64,000 bases of DNA, taken from contig OY776215.1 in the NCBI GenBank assembly GCA_963675495.1, forward strand, positions 1,472,001 to 1,536,000. Direction: 5' to 3'. A program made the translations under genes and the position numbers. This document shows positions 1,669-59,399 of this stretch, piece after piece. Numbering within the stretch: position 1 is the stretch's first letter; each line of letters begins with the position of its first letter. The stretch is from an uncultured Methanolobus sp. Its GTDB lineage: Archaea; Halobacteriota; Methanosarcinia; Methanosarcinales; Methanosarcinaceae. A model generated the notes under the pieces. It did not search any database. It was not told the DNA's origin and worked only from the letters and a program-made list of their open reading frames with translations.

Positions 1669-2241
1669 TTATATATTTGCCATGCCCTTCCATAACATCC
1701 GGAATCCATCCTCGATGATCTCATCCATATTTTCCTGAAAACCTGTATTCAGAATAAGCTCAACCACTGCCCTGCTGGATTGGTAAAATATCGCCATGCT
1801 CAGTTCCATTGAGTAAGCTTTATCTTTTCCGAAAATATTCTCCACCAGATCAAGCATGAATTCATTTTCCTTCATGGTTTCTTCACGGGTGAACTTTGTG
1901 ATATAAGGGGAAGAACTGAACTGTGCTACAAAAAGAAACTCTTCAGGTTTGTTTACACCACATCTGATGAAACTCACCCATAGTTGCTTTATCTGTTCCT
2001 CAGAAGATGCTTCAGGATCAAGTCCTCCTTTTACACAGGTGCTCAACCTGCTTTTAACCTCAAAATAGAGGCTGTTTATAAGCTCCTCCTTGGTGGCGAA
2101 GTAGTTGAAAAGACTACCTGTGGATACACCTGCCTCCTTTGAGATAAGTGCGGTGGACGTACCGTGAAAACCTCTTTCTGTAAAGAGTTTCAGGGCGGCA
2201 TTCATTATTGCGGTTTTCTTATCCTTGACCTGATTATTCAT
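1669..2241 (-). CDS. TetR/AcrR family transcriptional regulator
   Basis: IMNAALKLFTERGFHGTSTALISKEAGVSTGSLFNYFATKEEL HTH signature. Confidence 0.93.
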   Translation of the reverse strand: MNNQVKDKKTAIMNAALKLFTERGFHGTSTALISKEAGVSTGSLFNYFATKEELINSLYFEVKSRLSTCVKGGLDPEASSEEQIKQLWVSFIRCGVNKPEEFLFVAQFSSSPYITKFTREETMKENEFMLDLVENIFGKDKAYSMELSMAIFYQSSRAVVELILNTGFQENMDEIIEDGFRMLWKGMANI

Positions 2242-2263
2242 GTTTTTACTCTCGTGGTTATAG

Positions 2264-2277
2264 TGACTAATCAGTCA
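2264..2277. promoter_or_regulatory. Candidate TetR autoregulatory operator
   Basis: TGACT-AATC-AGTCA palindrome between tetR start and a TATA-like element at ~2289-2296. Confidence 0.55.
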
Positions 2278-2525
2278 TCAGTGTTATTGATATAAAAACT
2301 TTGCTAAAAAGAGATGAAAAACCAAGACAAATGAATCTATACAAGGAACACATAAACCAGACAGCTACTGTGTTATTTTTTAAAAATGTTTGATTAAGTT
2401 CCCATTAGAGAACTATCATTTTATTTTGCATAGGACGTACCTATAAGATTTTTGAGTGCCTTATTTTACGAAGATGCTCGTATTTTGCTCTTTACTTCTA
2501 CATCAACCTGATAACAAAAAAATAA

Positions 2526-3125
2526 TCACAGATTTTTTGTGATGAGATCCACAAAATCAACAAATCTGTGCCCATCCTTGTTCGAGAAGTGCTCAAATAT
2601 CGCTGCATCGTCTTTTATTTCTCCAAGTGTCCTTTTCAATGTTGCCACATATTCCAAATTAGTAGCATCTGAATTTACAAATATTATCTCGGATTCTGCT
2701 ATTTGATTAATTACGATATTCGGGATGAGTTCGGCCTTACTTTCCAGATTCCTTACATCAAATACGTGGACCATTGGTGCAATGGACATGCCAGGGAATT
2801 TGAGATTAGATACACCTGTCTTTATTTCAGTTGGCAACGCATTGAAAGGTATCTCGAGAATTATAGAATCAAATGCGTCCTCTTCGTAAATTTTCTGCAA
2901 CTCATTCGTCAGATCGAAAATAAAACTACAGGGGACACAACTGCTGAGTATTTCCTTTACAACCACTTCTGGATTTGTCTTGACCGGTTTTCCCGTCTTC
3001 TTCCCCAGATGGTCAGTGATCACGACAACGACTTTTTTATCTATTGAACTGATCTCATTCCCGACAGAAAAGAGTGTATTCTTCTTTTCTATTCCAGTGA
3101 AGCCGCTTATCATTATTATTTGCAT
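2526..3125 (-). CDS. CobW/HypB/UreG-like (G3E) protein with degenerate GTPase motifs
   Basis: N-terminal IIMISGF, EILSSCVPCS CxxC, NQIAESEIIFVN resemble the CobW family; P-loop GKT absent. Confidence 0.6.
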   Translation of the reverse strand: MQIIMISGFTGIEKKNTLFSVGNEISSIDKKVVVVITDHLGKKTGKPVKTNPEVVVKEILSSCVPCSFIFDLTNELQKIYEEDAFDSIILEIPFNALPTEIKTGVSNLKFPGMSIAPMVHVFDVRNLESKAELIPNIVINQIAESEIIFVNSDATNLEYVATLKRTLGEIKDDAAIFEHFSNKDGHRFVDFVDLITKNL

Positions 3126-51014: not shown

Positions 51015-51252
51015 CAGTACTATGTTTGTCCTGTTAGTAGATATAGATTGGTGTCATTCTAATAATTCTTCTTTTCATGTAGTAGCAAGATGATTTATTA
51101 TTCCAAAAAATCAACAAATCCCGTGAAATAAAAAAATATGCAAGTTTGGTAACACTAAACAAGTATTTATAACAGGATTCTTATGTAGAATGAAAACTTT
51201 CCCTGTCAAAAACAGGCTTTTTGGCCGGTTGTAAAATCAGCGTGTGACTATA

Positions 51253-52098
51253 ATGACTGAAAAACCTATCGTCCAGCTAAAAGGAGTATCCTATTTCTAC
51301 GCAAGCAGCAAGACAAAAGCTCTTAATGACATTGATCTTGATATTTATCCCGGAAAAAAGATAGCCATCCTTGGAGCAAACGGAGCAGGCAAATCAACAA
51401 TTTTCAAACATCTCAATGGCATACTCAAGCCTACATCCGGTGAGGTGCTTGTGAAAGGAGAGCCCATTTCGAAGAAAAACATTAGAAGCGTCCGTCAGAC
51501 TGTAGGAATCGTATTTCAGAACCCCGATGACCAGATACTTGCACCTACCATTGAGCAGGACGTGGCATTCGGCCCCATAAACATGGGACTTGACGAAGAA
51601 GAGGTTGAAAGAAGAGTAAAGAAAGCACTTGAACTTGTAAACCTTTCCGGGTTCGAAGAACGTTCACCACACCATCTCAGCGGAGGACAGAAAAAACTCG
51701 TCGCCATTGCAGGAGTACTGGCAATGCAGCCGGAAGTGGTCGTACTGGATGAGCCAACCGCCGGATTAGACCCTTTAAGCGCTGAGAATATAATGAAAAT
51801 CATAGACGGCATGAATAAGAAATTCGGGATAACAGTCATCCTTTCAACCCATGACGTTGACATAGTTCCTCTTTTTGCAGATATCGTATACATCATGCAC
51901 CACGGAAGAATAGAAGCCAGTGGTACTGCCAGGGAAATATTCAAAAACCATGAAGTACTCGAAAATGCGCACTTAAGGATGCCAAGAATAGCAGAAGTAT
52001 TCGAACTATTGCAGGAATCCGGGCTGGACGCAGACATAAAGATAACACCCCGGGATGCCAGGGATGAGATCATACGACTGGTAGAAAATAATAACTAG
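51253..52098 (+). CDS. cbiO: ECF transporter ATPase (CbiO/NikO)
   Basis: GANGAGKST, FQNPDDQ, LSGGQKK, LDEPT. Confidence 0.9.
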   Translation: MTEKPIVQLKGVSYFYASSKTKALNDIDLDIYPGKKIAILGANGAGKSTIFKHLNGILKPTSGEVLVKGEPISKKNIRSVRQTVGIVFQNPDDQILAPTIEQDVAFGPINMGLDEEEVERRVKKALELVNLSGFEERSPHHLSGGQKKLVAIAGVLAMQPEVVVLDEPTAGLDPLSAENIMKIIDGMNKKFGITVILSTHDVDIVPLFADIVYIMHHGRIEASGTAREIFKNHEVLENAHLRMPRIAEVFELLQESGLDADIKITPRDARDEIIRLVENNN

Positions 52099-52110
52099 AA
52101 AGGTCCACCC

Positions 52111-52917
52111 ATGGAGATCACACTTACTGATATTGAAAGGGAAGCATACAAGGACAGTCCAGTCCACAGGCTTGATGGAAGAATAAAGATACTTGCAATC
52201 ATTGCAATTATCGTTTTTGCAGTCAGCCTGCCGCGTATGGACGAAGCAAATTTCATGAAACTTGCGATTCTTGAGCTTTACCTGATCTTACTCATAGTAA
52301 TTGCAAGACTTAATCCTTTGTATACTATTATGAGATTCCTTTCCATATTGCCTTTTGGACTTGCTATTGTAATTATACAGCCATTTGTAAGGCAGCCATT
52401 CATTGAAACATTTACAGTATATCCAATGGATCTGCCACTTGGAATTACCCTGACATATGAAGGGATATTTTTTGGTGCGATTCTCCTTGCAAAGTACATT
52501 GTTTGTATAACGTCCATTGTACTCATGTCCTCTACTATGAAAATGAATGATATGGTAAGTTCTGCAAGAAGGCTTGGAATGCCTGCGGAATTCACCCTGA
52601 TCCTTTCAATGATGGTAAGGTACCTTTTCGTATTCTGGATAATACTCAAACGTATACGAGTTGCACAGAAAACACGTCTGTTCCACATATGGAACAAGAA
52701 CGTGCCCCATAAATGGATCCTTGAGCAGGTCGCATACACCATAAGCTCACTTTTCATCCGCTCCTATGAACAGGGAGAGAGAACGTACATAAGCATGCTC
52801 TGCAGAGGATATTCCAGTGTAAACAAAGTATATGTACATAAGAAAAAGATAAAAACTACAGATGTTCTATTCCTTGTAATGACCATAGGAACATTATTAC
52901 TGGCTTTTGTAGCCTGA
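52111..52917 (+). CDS. cbiQ: ECF transporter T component (CbiQ/NikQ)
   Basis: SPVHRLDGRIK, RYL, LFIRSYEQGER..SMLCRGY. Confidence 0.9.
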   Translation: MEITLTDIEREAYKDSPVHRLDGRIKILAIIAIIVFAVSLPRMDEANFMKLAILELYLILLIVIARLNPLYTIMRFLSILPFGLAIVIIQPFVRQPFIETFTVYPMDLPLGITLTYEGIFFGAILLAKYIVCITSIVLMSSTMKMNDMVSSARRLGMPAEFTLILSMMVRYLFVFWIILKRIRVAQKTRLFHIWNKNVPHKWILEQVAYTISSLFIRSYEQGERTYISMLCRGYSSVNKVYVHKKKIKTTDVLFLVMTIGTLLLAFVA

Positions 52918-52946
52918 AGAAAAAATCGGAAAAAAGGAAGAAGAAT

Positions 52947-53258
52947 TTATTTTTTTGCAACTTTTCCAAGTGCAAAGCTGATTCCCAGCACAAGAAGAGT
53001 GCCTATCACAACAGCAAGCACTTCTCCCATTTTACCCTGACCTTCGATTGCATAGTCAGGCATTGGGGATTCTACAAAAGGTGCAGATTCTTCCATCTCT
53101 GAGAATGTTGCCTCATCAATAATATTTCCTGCAGCACTTTCCAGACCATCCGGATCAGGGGATGCTAAAAAGGGAGCAAGGACAGATATAAGCAAAGCAA
53201 TTGCAATTCCTGCATAAAGGAATTTCATATTCAGACCTTTGCTGACACTCATATTCAT
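52947..53258 (-). CDS. PDGLE-domain ECF accessory subunit (NikN-type)
   Basis: ASPDPDGLE, PMPDY, two TMs. Confidence 0.88.
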   Translation of the reverse strand: MNMSVSKGLNMKFLYAGIAIALLISVLAPFLASPDPDGLESAAGNIIDEATFSEMEESAPFVESPMPDYAIEGQGKMGEVLAVVIGTLLVLGISFALGKVAKK

Positions 53259-53905
53259 ACCCCCACCCCATTGGTGCCTGTAATGGACGAATCCAGTAGA
53301 TCTGGTCTTGATTTTTCAATGGCCGTGATGACTATAGCAGTAATAAGACCTTCACCTACAAGCCCTATTATCAAGTGAAAAGTTCCCATTGCTGCAAGTC
53401 CTGCCACCAGAGGAAAAGTACCTGCAACAGAGAGTTGAACCGCACATACAATTGCAGACATAAACAATCCGAACCATGCACCGATAAAGGATGCACCTTT
53501 TATTCCTGCTTTATTCTTTAAAGCCACGAAAGTATAGTATCCCACAAACCCTGAAACAACTCCCATGTTCACGATATTTGCACCCATTGTTGTTATTCCA
53601 CCGTCTCCAAAGACAAAACCCTGAACCAGCAGTACAAGTGTAAGTACCAGCACACCGGCCATGGGACTTCCAAATATAATGGCAACAAGGGTAGCTCCAA
53701 CCATGTGACCGCTGGTTCCCATGCCTATTGGAATATTGAGTGCCTGTATGGCAAAAATTCCTGCAGCAAGCGCTGCCAGGATTGGTACTTTCATGTCATC
53801 AAGTTCTTTTCTTGCCCATTTCAGGGACATAAATATGAAAGGCAAAGCGATCACCCAGTAGATGAGCGCTTGTCCCATGGGTATAAACGAATCAGGTATA
53901 TGCAT
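53255..53905 (-). CDS. cbiM: ECF S component CbiM/NikM
   Basis: MHIPD N-terminus, GTSGH, GDGG, GEGLIT. Confidence 0.9.
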   Translation of the reverse strand: MHIPDSFIPMGQALIYWVIALPFIFMSLKWARKELDDMKVPILAALAAGIFAIQALNIPIGMGTSGHMVGATLVAIIFGSPMAGVLVLTLVLLVQGFVFGDGGITTMGANIVNMGVVSGFVGYYTFVALKNKAGIKGASFIGAWFGLFMSAIVCAVQLSVAGTFPLVAGLAAMGTFHLIIGLVGEGLITAIVITAIEKSRPDLLDSSITGTNGVGV

Positions 53906-55150: not shown

Positions 55151-55777
55151 ATGTCATGTAACAAGAACTGCAGGATATTTACAACTATTTCTTTATTAGT
55201 GTTGATTATCGTTTACTTCACAGGATTTACAAGTGCTGAAATAATTGTTGGGCTTTCACCTGCCCACATAATTGTTGATGAAAATGAGAATTTCACACTT
55301 GCAATGATCATAGAACCCGATGCCAAAGTCTCAGGTGCGGAGTTAGAAATCTCATATGATGTGTCACTTCTCAATATAACATCCATCACTGAAGGAGATT
55401 TTTTCAAGCAGGGAGGAAAGAATACAATATTCTCAAAAGGGAGTATTGATAATGAACTTGGAACTGTTACCGGCATATATTCCGTTGTAATGGGAGATGA
55501 CATACTTCCTGAATCAGGAACTTTTTTGAACATCACCCTAACCTCAAAAGACAATTCCGGAATTGCAGCTATAGAGATAAATAACGTCATGATCACCAAT
55601 TCTGCCGGAGACAAACTGAAAGTTAGTGTTGACAATGCAAAGGTGAACGTTGGTGATGTGAGAGTTGAGGATTCTACTGAAGAAACGGCTAAGAGTCAAC
55701 AATCTGGACAGAACATGTTAATACCTCTTGTATGTGCAATAATGTGCCTCTATTTTATAAATAGAAAAGAAAAATAA
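55151..55777 (+). CDS. Secreted cohesin-like domain protein with C-terminal membrane anchor
   Basis: Signal peptide; ISYD..LL.ITSITEGDFF and GTFLNITL cohesin-like pattern; TM + RKEK tail. Confidence 0.7.
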   Translation: MSCNKNCRIFTTISLLVLIIVYFTGFTSAEIIVGLSPAHIIVDENENFTLAMIIEPDAKVSGAELEISYDVSLLNITSITEGDFFKQGGKNTIFSKGSIDNELGTVTGIYSVVMGDDILPESGTFLNITLTSKDNSGIAAIEINNVMITNSAGDKLKVSVDNAKVNVGDVRVEDSTEETAKSQQSGQNMLIPLVCAIMCLYFINRKEK

Positions 55778-55805: not shown

Positions 55806-56585
55806 TCAGAGGCTTCCAATTAACCCTATCCTTATCTCATTCCCATTGTTCAAATGCAGTAATTTAGAAGCACTTCCCTGATTTACTGCAATCTCGAAAA
55901 ATCCGTGACTTCCTGTAAGCGATAGAATCCTTCCTTTTGGCACCTCAGCATAGGTACTCAAAAATGGCATCTTTCGTCCCGAAATCGAGAGAATGGTTCC
56001 ATGAGGTATATTCTTATGAATCTCTTCCCCCGGAATGTTAGTGACAATATTGCCAAATTTATCGACATATATCACTTTTGCCTCAATGAAATCCTTCTGT
56101 ATCGCATAGCCTGAGAAATCAAGATCAACATATTCATCTGTTCTCTGAGCAATGTCCTGAAGGTCCATTCCTCGGGAGATATGTGCGGCCGCCGGAGCAA
56201 AAATATCCCTGCCGTGGAAAGTAGAAGAAACATCCCCCAGAACCCCTTGATTCTTAATTTCAAAGACCTCCATATCTCCAAGCAAAGATGCAGCAGGAAT
56301 AAGAACACCATTGTCCGGACCTATAAAATAATGACCACCAGAACGTACAACTATAGCTTTTCTTTCAGTACCGACACCAGGGTCGATAACAGCAACATGA
56401 ATGGTTCCAAGCGGGAAATGCCGGACAACGGAATACAGGGCAAATGCACCCGCCCTGATATCAACAGAGGGTATTGAGTGAGTAATATCAACTATTGTTA
56501 CATCAGGATCTATACTGAGTATAACACCTTTCATGGATGCAGGATACAGAGATCCAAAGTCAGTTGTAAGCGTAATTACTGCCAT
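55806..56585 (-). CDS. SAM hydroxide adenosyltransferase (DUF62 family)
   Basis: TLTTDFG, VIDPGVGT.R, GPDNG, STFHGRDIF, DKFGN. Confidence 0.9.
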   Translation of the reverse strand: MAVITLTTDFGSLYPASMKGVILSIDPDVTIVDITHSIPSVDIRAGAFALYSVVRHFPLGTIHVAVIDPGVGTERKAIVVRSGGHYFIGPDNGVLIPAASLLGDMEVFEIKNQGVLGDVSSTFHGRDIFAPAAAHISRGMDLQDIAQRTDEYVDLDFSGYAIQKDFIEAKVIYVDKFGNIVTNIPGEEIHKNIPHGTILSISGRKMPFLSTYAEVPKGRILSLTGSHGFFEIAVNQGSASKLLHLNNGNEIRIGLIGSL

Positions 56586-56683: not shown

Positions 56684-57838
56684 TTATACAGGATTTTTGT
56701 ATTGCCCATGATAGAAAACCAGCTCGAATCGAGCTCCTTTACCCGATATACCAGTCTCCCTGATACCAATGCCAGTTATAGACAGAATCTCTTTGGAAAG
56801 GAAAAGTCCGTATCCAGAGTTAGAATTACCTTTCTTGAACAATTTGCTCTTATCTTCAATACCAATACCGTCATCCTGGAATACAACCAAAAGGTGATCT
56901 TCTTCCTCCACAGTGGTGATGAGTAGATTACTGGCATTGCTGTGCTTGATGACATTGTTGGCTAGATTATAGAAAACTTTCCTTATCATTGGATCAGTGA
57001 AAATCAAATAATCCCTTACATCTATATGGAAATTCACCAATGCTTTATCCAGTGGGACCATAGCTTCACTCAGAACATCCTGAAGATTGACCCACTCAGG
57101 AGCTTGAATGCCAATCTCCTGATAATCTTTAGTAAACATAATATGCCTGTCAATAGACCTCACGCTCCCTTCCATCCTCTGCAACAGCATGAGCTCTTCA
57201 GGATCATATACCTGTTCCATAGCCAAATGCAGGTATCCTTCCAGGACCATTACCTGATTCATTATATCATGGCGTGTGATTGAGCTAAGTAGATTCAGTT
57301 TGTTGTTTGCCTGCTTGAGAGCTTCCGTCCTCTTCTCTTTCTCGGTTATATCTTCAACGACGCCGTCTATGAAAATGATGTTGCCTTTGGCATCGTACTG
57401 TGCAGAAAGAGTGAGCGAGCATAAGATGGTTGTTCCGTCCCTGGCCTTGAACATCAGCTTGCGGTCCTTTATCCTACCAGTCCGCCTCAACTCCCTCAGT
57501 AACTCAAAGCGGTCCTCTGGATGAAGATAGACATCTGTGGCAGATATATTCAAAAGATCTTTTTCATTATTGAAGCCCAGCATCTTACAAAAAGCTGGAT
57601 TTGCCTGAACTATATGGCCGCTTTCCCATGGTTCACTCCTGATAATACCGATATTGACGTTCTCTATCAAAGTGCGATACTTATTCTCACTTTCCTGCAA
57701 TGCATGCATGGCCAGATTCAGCTCACTTATCTGCTCCTTTAGTTGAGGATAATAACTCTTCCGATGAGATGTTTCACCTAATCCGATTATCTTCTTTCGA
57801 AGAAGATCCATTCTTATTTCGTTTTCAGAGCGCTTCAT
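56684..57838 (-). CDS. PAS-domain sensor histidine kinase
   Basis: PAS (LIENVNIGI...DGVVEDIT), H-box RHDIMNQ, N-box NLANNVIKH, DDGIG, GYGL. Confidence 0.9.
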   Translation of the reverse strand: MKRSENEIRMDLLRKKIIGLGETSHRKSYYPQLKEQISELNLAMHALQESENKYRTLIENVNIGIIRSEPWESGHIVQANPAFCKMLGFNNEKDLLNISATDVYLHPEDRFELLRELRRTGRIKDRKLMFKARDGTTILCSLTLSAQYDAKGNIIFIDGVVEDITEKEKRTEALKQANNKLNLLSSITRHDIMNQVMVLEGYLHLAMEQVYDPEELMLLQRMEGSVRSIDRHIMFTKDYQEIGIQAPEWVNLQDVLSEAMVPLDKALVNFHIDVRDYLIFTDPMIRKVFYNLANNVIKHSNASNLLITTVEEEDHLLVVFQDDGIGIEDKSKLFKKGNSNSGYGLFLSKEILSITGIGIRETGISGKGARFELVFYHGQYKNPV

Positions 57839-59015
57839 GGTAAAGTCTCTCTATGTCCTTTATCGTGACAGGACGAGGGTTGGTGGCCAGACAAGGATCC
57901 AGGAATGCATTCTCACTAAGACGCTTGATATCCTCCTCTTTTACCCCCATGTTTGATAGACCGGACTTTATCCCCAGCTGGTTAGCCATGTTTCGTAGTT
58001 CGTAGGCCAAGCCGTCAGGTCCACTATCCTTTGACGTCTTCTTTCCGGTCATAGCAGCCTCAAGATCTCTGTATTTTTCTGGTTCCCAGGAATAATTAAA
58101 GGCAACGACATGTTCCAGAAGCTGGGCATTGCTTTCACCGTGAGAAGAATCCAGATAACCTCCCAGACTATGCGCCATGGCATGCACTAAACCCAGGCTG
58201 GCGTTGGAAAATGCCAGACCTGCATACATGCTTCCAAGCATGACCTTGCCCCTGACAATGATATTTTCAGGATCACTATATGCTTTTGGCAGGTATTCCG
58301 CTAATAGTTTAGTAGCCTCTAAAGCAAACATATCGGTCATGGAAGAGGAGGCATTCGAAACATATGACTCAAAAGCATGACAAAGAGCATCCATGCCAGT
58401 CATTGCAGTCTGTTCGAGGCTCATGGTAATGGTTGTCTCAGGATCTACCAGTGCAAGGTCTGGCAACATGGTCTTACTGATTATGGCGAACTTGCGTTTC
58501 TTCTGTTCATCGGTAATTATAGCAAATTGAGACACATCGGCAGAGGAACCGGCTGTAGTAGGAATACATATGATTGGAGGAGCAGGCATAGCCACTTCAT
58601 CCACCCCTTCCAACTCCAGAACGTTGCACCTGTTAGATACTACCGCACCTATCACCTTGCCACAGTCCATGGAACTACCACCGCCCACGACCACTATCAG
58701 ATCACAATTTTTCTCCATATAAAGAGCCGCACCTCGCATGACCTCCGTAGATCGAGGATTTGGGGAAATTTTGTCATAGATCACAACATTTATGCCTATA
58801 TCCCTCAGATTATCCGCTACTTCCCCGGTCCAGCCAGCTTTAAAGATGCCGGGGTCGCTTACCAAAAATACATTTTTGCCAGAAAGACTGAGAACATACT
58901 GGCCTATAAGATTTCGGGAGCCATCACCGAAAATAATCTCAGGTGCTAAGAATTTCCTAATTGGAAGTATTCCATTAGCTTTGTTGTCCACTTCTTTGGT
59001 ATTTGCCCCGATCAT
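57825..59015 (-). CDS. Iron-containing alcohol dehydrogenase, ErcA-like
   Basis: IRKFLAPEIIFG, GGGSSMD, PTTAGS, DALCHAFE, HAMAH, HG. Confidence 0.88.
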   Translation of the reverse strand: MIGANTKEVDNKANGILPIRKFLAPEIIFGDGSRNLIGQYVLSLSGKNVFLVSDPGIFKAGWTGEVADNLRDIGINVVIYDKISPNPRSTEVMRGAALYMEKNCDLIVVVGGGSSMDCGKVIGAVVSNRCNVLELEGVDEVAMPAPPIICIPTTAGSSADVSQFAIITDEQKKRKFAIISKTMLPDLALVDPETTITMSLEQTAMTGMDALCHAFESYVSNASSSMTDMFALEATKLLAEYLPKAYSDPENIIVRGKVMLGSMYAGLAFSNASLGLVHAMAHSLGGYLDSSHGESNAQLLEHVVAFNYSWEPEKYRDLEAAMTGKKTSKDSGPDGLAYELRNMANQLGIKSGLSNMGVKEEDIKRLSENAFLDPCLATNPRPVTIKDIERLYHEAL

Positions 59016-59399
59016 GCTGACACATCTCCCTGCTTAAGTAATTTCCCGGCATTTCCCAGTGTGTCAGGAATCCTTTGTGCATGTCAAAAATATAATATCC
59101 CCGTAAAATACTGTGACATATAAGTATAAAAGTATTGTCTTGCCAAAGCTATGCTTTTTTAAAAATACAGTGTGGACATATTTTATTCTAAAAGAAAGAA
59201 TCAAAGGTGATTAACACTACATAACAAATTAATTACCAAATTCAAGGGAGAGAAAAGTGGCTGTGAGAGCTTCAGAAAAATAAGGTTGATTATTAGAAGA
59301 TATTCCAAATTATAAAAGAAAGCATACCACTTACAAATTATATGTAACACTTATATCAAAAAAGTAAAAAAATGAAAAAACGAAGTAATGCCAGAGGCA

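Follow-up and report, generated by a model that had tools for sequence, protein, structure and literature searches.

Whether an iron alcohol dehydrogenase (Fe-ADH, here also ADH) and a histidine kinase with overlapping genes act together as a sensor in a methanogen is the question raised by a 64,000-nucleotide stretch of an uncultured Methanolobus sp. genome (positions 1,472,001-1,536,000 of a single-contig genome of 2.87 Mb; the whole stretch is called the window). The ADH gene, an open reading frame (ORF) at 57825-59015 on the minus strand, encodes a 396-residue group III enzyme of the ErcA family with the Pfam domains Fe-ADH and ADH_Fe_C. The kinase gene, at 56684-57838 on the same strand, encodes a soluble PAS histidine kinase of 384 residues with no receiver (REC) domain (ORF and Pfam; AlphaFold2, AF2, model with a predicted local distance difference test score, pLDDT, of 84.1). 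Comparison across genomes reveals that the two genes form a genuine, conserved sensor of the ErcA/ErcS type, with an archaeal, non-hybrid kinase body and a methanogen host, and that the feature linking it to its relatives is a short element at the N-terminus of the kinase.

The kinase starts MKRSENEIRMDL and continues with LRKKIIGLGETSHRKSYYPQL at residues 13-33; an original prediction from the same DNA had the protein begin with the latter string, which is present as quoted but not at the very start. The conserved partner motif within it, RKKIIGLGETSHRKSYYPQL (R14-L33; 57740-57799, minus strand), was delimited by alignment of 77 sensors and by profile search. A search with kinase residues 1-50 returned 35 archaeal kinases (E <= 7e-10, 66-100% identity over the stretch), together with weaker bacterial matches of other architectures that have KIIGLGxxSxRKSYYPxL in common. 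Scanning of one genome per prokaryotic species with a degenerate DNA pattern for I-G-[LF]-G-x2-S-x-R-K-S-x-Y-P gave at least 121 loci, about 13 chance matches being expected by our own estimate under uniform base composition, and 119 of the 121 listed loci, from which the counts of listed loci below are taken, carry the extended consensus [RK]xx[IL]IGLGExSxRKSYYPELQx[RK][LI]xELE close to an ORF start. Of these 119, 99 are from bacterial records and 20 from archaeal ones, and at least 17 phyla are represented. L095 and L098 look like chance matches to the pattern, not the true element. Seven residues (I18, G19, G21, K27, Y30, P31 and L33) are invariant in the 77 sensors, that is, the window kinase and 76 others from listed loci. 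A profile built on residues 1-65 of these 77 proteins matched 1,380 cluster representatives among 1.84 billion at E <= 0.001 (1,046 at E <= 1e-10), and of the best 150 of the 1,380 nearly all match from residue 1 onwards. The genome that holds the window has a single copy of the element, at 58 bits against the element hidden Markov model (HMM), the next best match reaching 10 bits.

No model in Pfam or NCBIfam covers the element and the motif string was not found in the literature searched, which also seems to hold no description of a portable peptide that links many types of output to ErcA. The element is carried by Pseudomonas proteins with the NCBI name NahK/ErcS family, in the form LLGLGSHS[SA]RK..YPEL (for example LLGLGSHSSRKNYYPEL).

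The ADH matches the NCBIfam model NF041833 (alcohol dehydrogenase-like regulatory protein ErcA) at 550.0 bits by hmmscan and 549.7 in the genome search, with a curated cut-off of 550, and its second-best family, lactaldehyde reductase, reaches 320 bits; close Methanolobus homologues carry the NCBI name ErcA. Judged by these scores, which bear out the ErcA-like assignment first made by eye, the protein is a member of the ErcA family, at the family's edge. A family-specific segment, LPIRKFLAPEIIFG (L17-G30; 58926-58967, minus strand), identified by alignment and in the AF2 model, follows a flexible N-terminal tail, and R20, K21, P25, E26 and G30 within it are invariant in all 71 aligned ADHs from listed loci. 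The pattern [EL]LRKFxxPE before strand 1, whose use as an ErcA-defining trait was derived in this analysis, is present in the window ADH and missing from all 14 non-ErcA Fe-ADHs compared. The proposed RKFxxPExIFG hallmark of the dehydrogenase was thereby upheld as a true signature of the family.

The remainder of the ADH is that of a group III Fe-ADH, with the Pfam domains PF00465 and PF25137, a GGGS motif and a D/H/H/H metal site. GGGS (residues 111-114; 58674-58685, minus strand), which we take to bind NAD(P) as in other Fe-ADHs, is invariant in the 71 aligned ADHs, as are D209, H213, H278 and H292 (within 58140-58391, minus strand), presumably the metal ligands by alignment and by homology to FucO and Mdh. 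The AF2 model (pLDDT 93.4; below 50 at residues 1-11, a disordered tail, and on average 67 at residues 11-20) superposes at template-modelling (TM) scores of 0.90-0.92 and 33-38% identity on structures 8zrl, 8zwd, 3bfj, 1rrm and 3owo, with 0.92 for 8zrl, and of all solved structures those that match best in sequence are also group III Fe-ADHs (E about 1e-82). By motif and by model, the ADH looks like a working enzyme with its catalytic motifs intact. Reading the ligand from the nearest structures was tried and rejected: enzymes for methanol, propanediol, lactaldehyde and ethanol all superpose at 0.90-0.92, and because these matches are near-equal the ligand cannot be read from them.

Flanking sequence of 3 kb was available for 80 of the listed loci and of only 300 nt for 41. 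An Fe-ADH gene lies directly upstream of the motif, on the same strand, in 77 of the 80, one of the exceptions (L068) being limited by the end of its contig; among the 41, the C-terminus of an ADH is seen in 36, and the other five include two chance matches and a locus, L122, with just 59 nt of upstream sequence. All 70 complete ADHs from listed loci have ErcA as their best NCBIfam match (515-639 bits), 66 of them reaching the cut-off. Independently of the DNA pattern, NF041833 was run against a sample of 401 genomes from the window's phylum; it found 75 matches at E <= 1e-100, and 70 of these were examined, all except the window's own and the four weakest; variants of the element such as S.HKSYYP, IGMG and RKNYFP exist, and it was therefore detected here by HMM. 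Every ADH with LRKF..PE (56 of 56; 455-627 bits) has an element match alongside, versus none of the 14 without that segment (at most 456 bits, aligned to the model from position 9-12), so that near 455 bits the N-terminal segment, and not bit score alone, separates ErcA-type from other ADHs. The pairing of element and ErcA-type ADH is thus confirmed to be beyond chance and conserved across phyla. GLGxxSxRKSxYP, the second proposed hallmark of the pair, stands beside each of these 56 ADHs as well as in the NCBI-named Pseudomonas proteins.

Several loci add variations. The Nitrospira metagenome-assembled genome (MAG) at L068, whose contig ends 531 nt upstream, has a 43-residue ORF (362-490) just upstream of its motif-bearing kinase whose match to the ADH profile is confined to positions 3-29, the LRKF segment. 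In archaeal family f27 (L173-L179; ADH 455-480 bits) the partner gene follows at roughly 100-300 nt without overlap, and in a genus sister to Methanolobus (L200; G383:C8:137400-157200) two ErcA-type ADHs stand in tandem about 2.6 kb apart, with the motif after each. A distinct non-ErcA Fe-ADH subfamily that starts YTYLNP... (L180-L192 and L177; 423-456 bits against NF041833) lacks the partner motif; it is common both within the window's family (genus g4, 7 of 13 genomes) and outside it.

What follows the element varies widely. By Pfam, 79 listed partner proteins comprise 40 non-hybrid kinases, 29 hybrid kinases with REC, and ten others (four GGDEF-EAL, two GGDEF-HD, two SpoIIE/PP2C, one STAS and one with PAS only). 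The kinase cores themselves fall into HisKA, HisKA_2/HWE and HisKA_3 classes and an archaeal type without a HisKA match, to which the window kinase belongs. In 12 of the 69 listed partner kinases the dimerization and histidine phosphotransfer (DHp) domain begins 50-90 residues past the motif and no PAS or GAF domain is detected, and the ADH is therefore the sole candidate input in those proteins. Judging from the domain content of these partners, what follows the peptide is exchangeable. In three proteins (L006, L014 and L071) the ErcA-partner peptide is followed by PAS domains that have a PocR sensory domain between them.

In the window kinase the motif leads into a long coiled-coil-like helix (AF2, residues 25-60; 57659-57766, minus strand, as for all kinase features), for which Pfam gives only leucine-zipper look-alikes below threshold, and which joins the motif to a PAS domain (residues 63-163; 57350-57652; Pfam PAS_9 and PAS, Pfam span 53-166; AF2 strands and helices). 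There follow the DHp helices (residues 165-241; 57116-57346; AF2 helices 165-209 and 213-241), with the phospho-acceptor H190 (57269-57271) in an ITRHD box, and the catalytic ATP-binding (CA) domain (residues 248-375; 56714-57097; Pfam HATPase_c 285-374). The H-box LLSSITRHD, an N-box at 295, G1 (DxGxG) at 322 and G2 (GxGL) at 342, together with HATPase_c and the DHp and CA folds of the AF2 model, identify a two-component histidine kinase, and the predicted order of a PAS domain and then the LLSSITRHD H-box is borne out by Pfam and by sequence. The DHp gives a weak SPOB_a match and no HisKA match in Pfam, and this archaeal-type domain has nine paralogues in the same genome. No transmembrane segment is evident in the kinase, the highest 19-residue Kyte-Doolittle mean being 0.99, and no receiver domain is encoded in the window, the nearest of 23 genome-wide Response_reg matches lying about 79 kb from the kinase; on both points the original prediction was correct. 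Its description of the kinase as "hybrid" was wrong in the technical sense, because the protein has no receiver domain (no Response_reg match in Pfam).

NF041832, the model of the NahK/ErcS family (at least 400 bits required), is not among the listed matches of the window kinase, the best of which is AtoS at 65 bits; the model spans only the C-terminal HisKA-HATPase-REC block. Among related partners, the archaeal L045 and L078 match no family at E <= 1e-30, and the bacterial L056 and P0427 match NF041832 at 442 and 419 bits. By these profile scores the window kinase is outside the ErcS family, yet it bears the same partner element, which places it among ErcS-like partners, a functional class set up in this analysis and recognised by an N-terminal element that starts at about residue 1. 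AF2 confidence in the kinase is lowest (pLDDT below 50) at residues 19-21 and 23-27, which are its most conserved residues; a conserved stretch modelled with low confidence and followed by a helix is what a motif folding on a partner would look like, although this is not proof.

The two genes share 14 nt (57825-57838; ATGAAGCGCTCTGA on the coding strand), as originally noted and as is plain from the ORF coordinates and the sequence, with the kinase ATG lying within ADH codons H-E, five codons ahead of the ADH stop. In 98 of 111 listed related loci a start codon, predicted for the partner, lies within the ADH gene 11-20 nt before its end (79 at -17, 11 at -11, six at -14 as in the window, and two at -20), and in 49 of the 111, as in the window, the first codon of the motif falls exactly 37 nt past the ADH stop. 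From its arrangement, the overlap probably couples translation of the kinase to that of the ADH, and such coupling is therefore proposed to fix the ratio of the two proteins. Upstream of the ADH, the AT-rich intergenic region 59016-59399 (minus strand, by inspection of the sequence) has a T-run after the thiC stop and AT-rich boxes ahead of the ADH start, and likely holds a putative promoter of the two-gene unit's own.

Within Methanolobus, two kinase types stand behind one peptide, the 384-residue type of the window and another of 406-418 residues with HisKA, which share 72-82% identity in their first 50 residues versus 28-33% overall; the kinase body has been swapped within the genus. In six of the seven other Methanolobus genomes that carry the full pair it occupies the same site, in the order ScpB-TBP-glycosyltransferase-ThiC-[ADH-kinase]-SAM hydrolase-cohesin protein-radical SAM-CbiMNQO (SAM, S-adenosylmethionine), and in all five pair-less genomes examined thiC and the SAM hydrolase gene are direct neighbours, 104-285 nt apart. 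An ADH match is found in eight of 14 genomes sampled from the genus, one of them (G079) N-terminally truncated and outside the site comparison. The Methanolobus pair is thus a two-gene cassette, present or absent between thiC and the SAM hydrolase gene. A degraded copy lies in the Methanolobus sp. MAG AC3.18 (L080, about 2239-3092), where only ADH residues 156-368 align and the partner ORF is broken after 40 residues, with several stops. Methanolobus profundi has a normal pair (L093) and a second motif-bearing N-terminus (L094) with no ADH detected in 300 nt upstream, which may be an orphan partner sharing the single ADH of L093.

The origin of the module was approached with a FastTree phylogeny that contains 141 ADHs, of which 14 archaeal non-ErcA Fe-ADHs served as the root. 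The ErcA clade has full support; the window ADH groups with nine sequences of its own family and two from Methanomassiliicoccales (support 100), and this clade of 12 is sister to the other 115 ErcA sequences (support 89) on a weak backbone. Archaeal ErcAs of other groups, such as Methanoregulaceae and Methanocellaceae, fall into clades of their own among bacteria. A bacterial origin, which the original prediction had assumed, was considered and set aside, the tree showing no bacterial donor and placing the window clade as sister to the rest; because the backbone is weak and the outgroup archaeal only, no donor can be named. The other half of that claim, a module grafted onto an archaeal kinase, is supported by the divergence of the kinase bodies behind a common peptide. 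Overall, the ErcA family, the hallmarks and the graft stood, and the label "hybrid" did not. Two phyla of methanogens that use methyl compounds meet in the window clade, which lends circumstantial support to a link between role and lifestyle, and nothing more.

To our knowledge, a 2025 study in Pseudomonas putida is the only experimental work on ADH-dependent kinases, and the pairing has so far been known only from Pseudomonas. According to that study and to a review, P. putida YiaY is 87% identical to P. aeruginosa ErcA and YiaZ is an ErcS homologue (PP_2682-PP_2683; PMC12551699), and the overlapping, co-cistronic yiaY and yiaZ are both required in cis for alcohol-dependent induction (PMC12551699; PMC12997753). 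Removal of the first 14 residues of YiaY, or the substitution H281A, in each case abolishes signalling, the two proteins co-sediment, and AlphaFold3 brings both N-termini together (PMC12551699; PMC12997753). Close homologues are described in PMC12551699 as confined to 20 pseudomonad genomes; the sequences assembled here do not agree with that restriction if it is taken as a statement about the module.

By extension, the Methanolobus pair is probably one cytoplasmic two-protein sensor of alcohol or redox state like YiaY-YiaZ, with the ADH as receptor. We infer that the two proteins dock physically and that the signal runs from ADH to kinase; the ligand may be methanol, as originally suggested, ethanol, an aldehyde or the NAD(H) state. 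The ErcA-type Fe-ADH, its NAD(P) and metal sites intact, would serve as the ligand-binding receptor subunit, and the kinase, having no receptor of its own for the signal, would recruit it through its first ~45 residues, namely the R14-L33 motif, predicted to be disordered alone, and the coiled-coil-like helix after it. The peptide would dock on the ADH, probably together with the ADH N-terminal tail, as conservation and the relevant findings in PMC12551699 suggest. A short-chain alcohol or aldehyde, NAD(H), or both, once bound or turned over, would then alter the ADH, and the change would be relayed along the helix and through the PAS domain to the DHp, setting autophosphorylation of H190, from which the phosphate would pass to a receiver encoded elsewhere.

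Several points weigh against this reading. The PAS domain of the kinase could itself be the sensor; the ADH scores exactly at the ErcA cut-off and belongs to the ErcA branch that diverges most; neither a cognate regulator nor target genes were identified for the pair; and at two of the 80 listed flanked loci, L041 and L060, the 3 kb of upstream sequence hold no ADH. The supporting experiments were made in a distant bacterium, in which the kinase has another body. Covariation between ADH and peptide (mutual information with average product correction over 127 pairs) is only suggestive: the top pairs, ADH S273 with peptide position -1 (S/I 87, I/L 30) and ADH E294 with peptide position +8 (E/R 75, R/H 11), involve ADH positions that flank the metal ligands H278 and H292, and they cannot reach significance because there are only two supported independent contrasts.

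The alternative that survives best, though rather unlikely, is the model drawn for P. putida in PMC12551699, in which the ADH acts only as an enzyme, its aldehyde or NADH is sensed by the kinase PAS domain, and the peptide is a proximity tether. The invariant catalytic residues and the PAS domain of the window kinase fit this model, as does the loss of signalling in H281A, for which the authors propose an aldehyde hand-over (PMC12551699). It is harder to reconcile with the 12 partner kinases that have no PAS or GAF domain, and no room for one between motif and DHp, and with conservation that resides in the peptide and not in the PAS domain.

It is less probable still that the pair reads the NAD(P)H/NAD(P)+ state at the ADH cofactor site, irrespective of any particular alcohol. 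The invariant GGGS motif would be expected in that case, hosts of the module live on very different substrates, hydrogenotrophic methanogens and sulfate reducers included, and PMC12997753 leaves redox coupling open as a possibility. But the metal ligands, which serve substrate chemistry, are invariant likewise, and the Pseudomonas response, as reported in PMC12551699, is alcohol-specific and graded by type of alcohol.

Reverse control, in which the kinase or its peptide regulates the ADH as a catabolic enzyme and not a sensor, seems very improbable. Peptide and ADH are conserved together, and the covarying ADH positions beside the metal ligands could be read in its favour; many partners, though, have no other input domain and hence would have nothing to instruct them, GGDEF-EAL, PP2C and STAS outputs are sensible only downstream of a signal, and Pseudomonas mutants lose transcriptional induction (PMC12997753). 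That an ordinary catabolic Fe-ADH lies by coincidence beside an unrelated orphan kinase can be dismissed, despite a fold and active site as in working enzymes and the lack of a regulator nearby, being already contradicted by comparative data: pairing at 77 of 80 listed loci, 56 of 56 against 0 of 14 in the phylum sample, occurrence in bacteria and archaea, a conserved overlap, and joint presence or absence of the genes in Methanolobus.

With the ADH as receptor, a wider proposal may be framed, to which we give an even chance. An element of ~35-45 residues ([RK]xx[IL]IGLGxxSxRKSYYP[EQ]L plus the coiled-coil helix) would be an undescribed, portable ErcA-docking module, by means of which a catalytically intact Fe-ADH provides ligand binding in trans to at least six kinds of output protein (kinase, hybrid kinase, GGDEF-EAL, GGDEF-HD, PP2C and STAS) in at least 17 phyla and 1,380 cluster representatives. 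It would travel as a two-gene cassette with a freely exchanged body, and methanol or a related C1/C2 alcohol would be its signal in the branch formed by Methanolobus, its sister genus and Methanomassiliicoccales, methanogens that all use methyl compounds. In the boldest form of this proposal, the conserved Ser/Tyr hydroxyls of the peptide would occupy the active-site cleft of the ADH as a tethered pseudo-substrate, to be displaced by free alcohol; the two top covarying ADH positions lie beside the metal ligands H278 and H292. The sequences compared here show a conserved module with a recognisable docking signature in bacteria and archaea, at least four methanogen lineages among them, and it would supply an input for hundreds of orphan signalling proteins annotated merely as "PAS domain S-box protein". 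Such systems can be found by a simple rule, an ErcA-type ADH N-terminus and a neighbour starting IIGLG..S.RKSYYP. We know of no alcohol sensor in methylotrophic methanogens, for which the pair would be a small, soluble, cytoplasmic candidate, and strains that naturally have or lack the cassette at one fixed locus offer a ready-made comparison.

The neighbouring genes may be described briefly. Directly downstream of the kinase, at 55806-56585 on the minus strand, is a gene of the SAM hydroxide adenosyltransferase / (R)-SAM hydrolase family, probably with its own promoter because an AT-rich, TATA-like box precedes its start. At 55151-55777 on the plus strand a small secreted or anchored protein is encoded, which contains a cohesin domain (Pfam, E 7.5e-8) and ends in a hydrophobic tail at its C-terminus; at 39-62% identity among Methanolobus it is less conserved than its neighbours. 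Farther along, 51244-53905 holds what appears, judged by ORF translations alone, to be a cobalt or nickel ECF transporter cluster of the CbiO/CbiQ (plus strand) and CbiN/CbiM (minus strand) type.

Among known systems, the group III Fe-ADHs of solved structure, the Bacillus methanolicus methanol dehydrogenases (8zrl, 8zwd), DhaT (3bfj), FucO (1rrm) and ZmADH2 (3owo), resemble the window ADH in fold and in their metal and GGGS motifs, but are catabolic, have no partner kinase and, judging by where the alignments start, have no LRKF N-terminal segment. NosP-NahK (ErcS'), a parallel drawn in PMC12997753, likewise has a separate soluble sensor encoded beside the kinase that it modulates, and NahK and ErcS belong to one NCBI kinase family, whereas NosP is a haem NO-binding protein and not an ADH. 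Closest is ErcA-ErcS of P. aeruginosa, or YiaY-YiaZ of P. putida, an alcohol-sensing module; in Pseudomonas, ErcA is defined genetically by its regulatory part in alcohol use. From this system the window differs in its kinase, which has an archaeal-type DHp and lacks REC, a HisKA match and an NF041832 match, in having neither a ped/exa regulon nor an AgmR-like regulator nearby, and in its anaerobic methanogen host and an ADH on the deepest branch of the family. The two nevertheless share an ADH of the same NCBIfam family with its catalytic residues kept, overlapping and co-cistronic genes, and, on both sides of the proposed contact, a conserved N-terminal segment of the ADH and an N-terminal element of the sensor.

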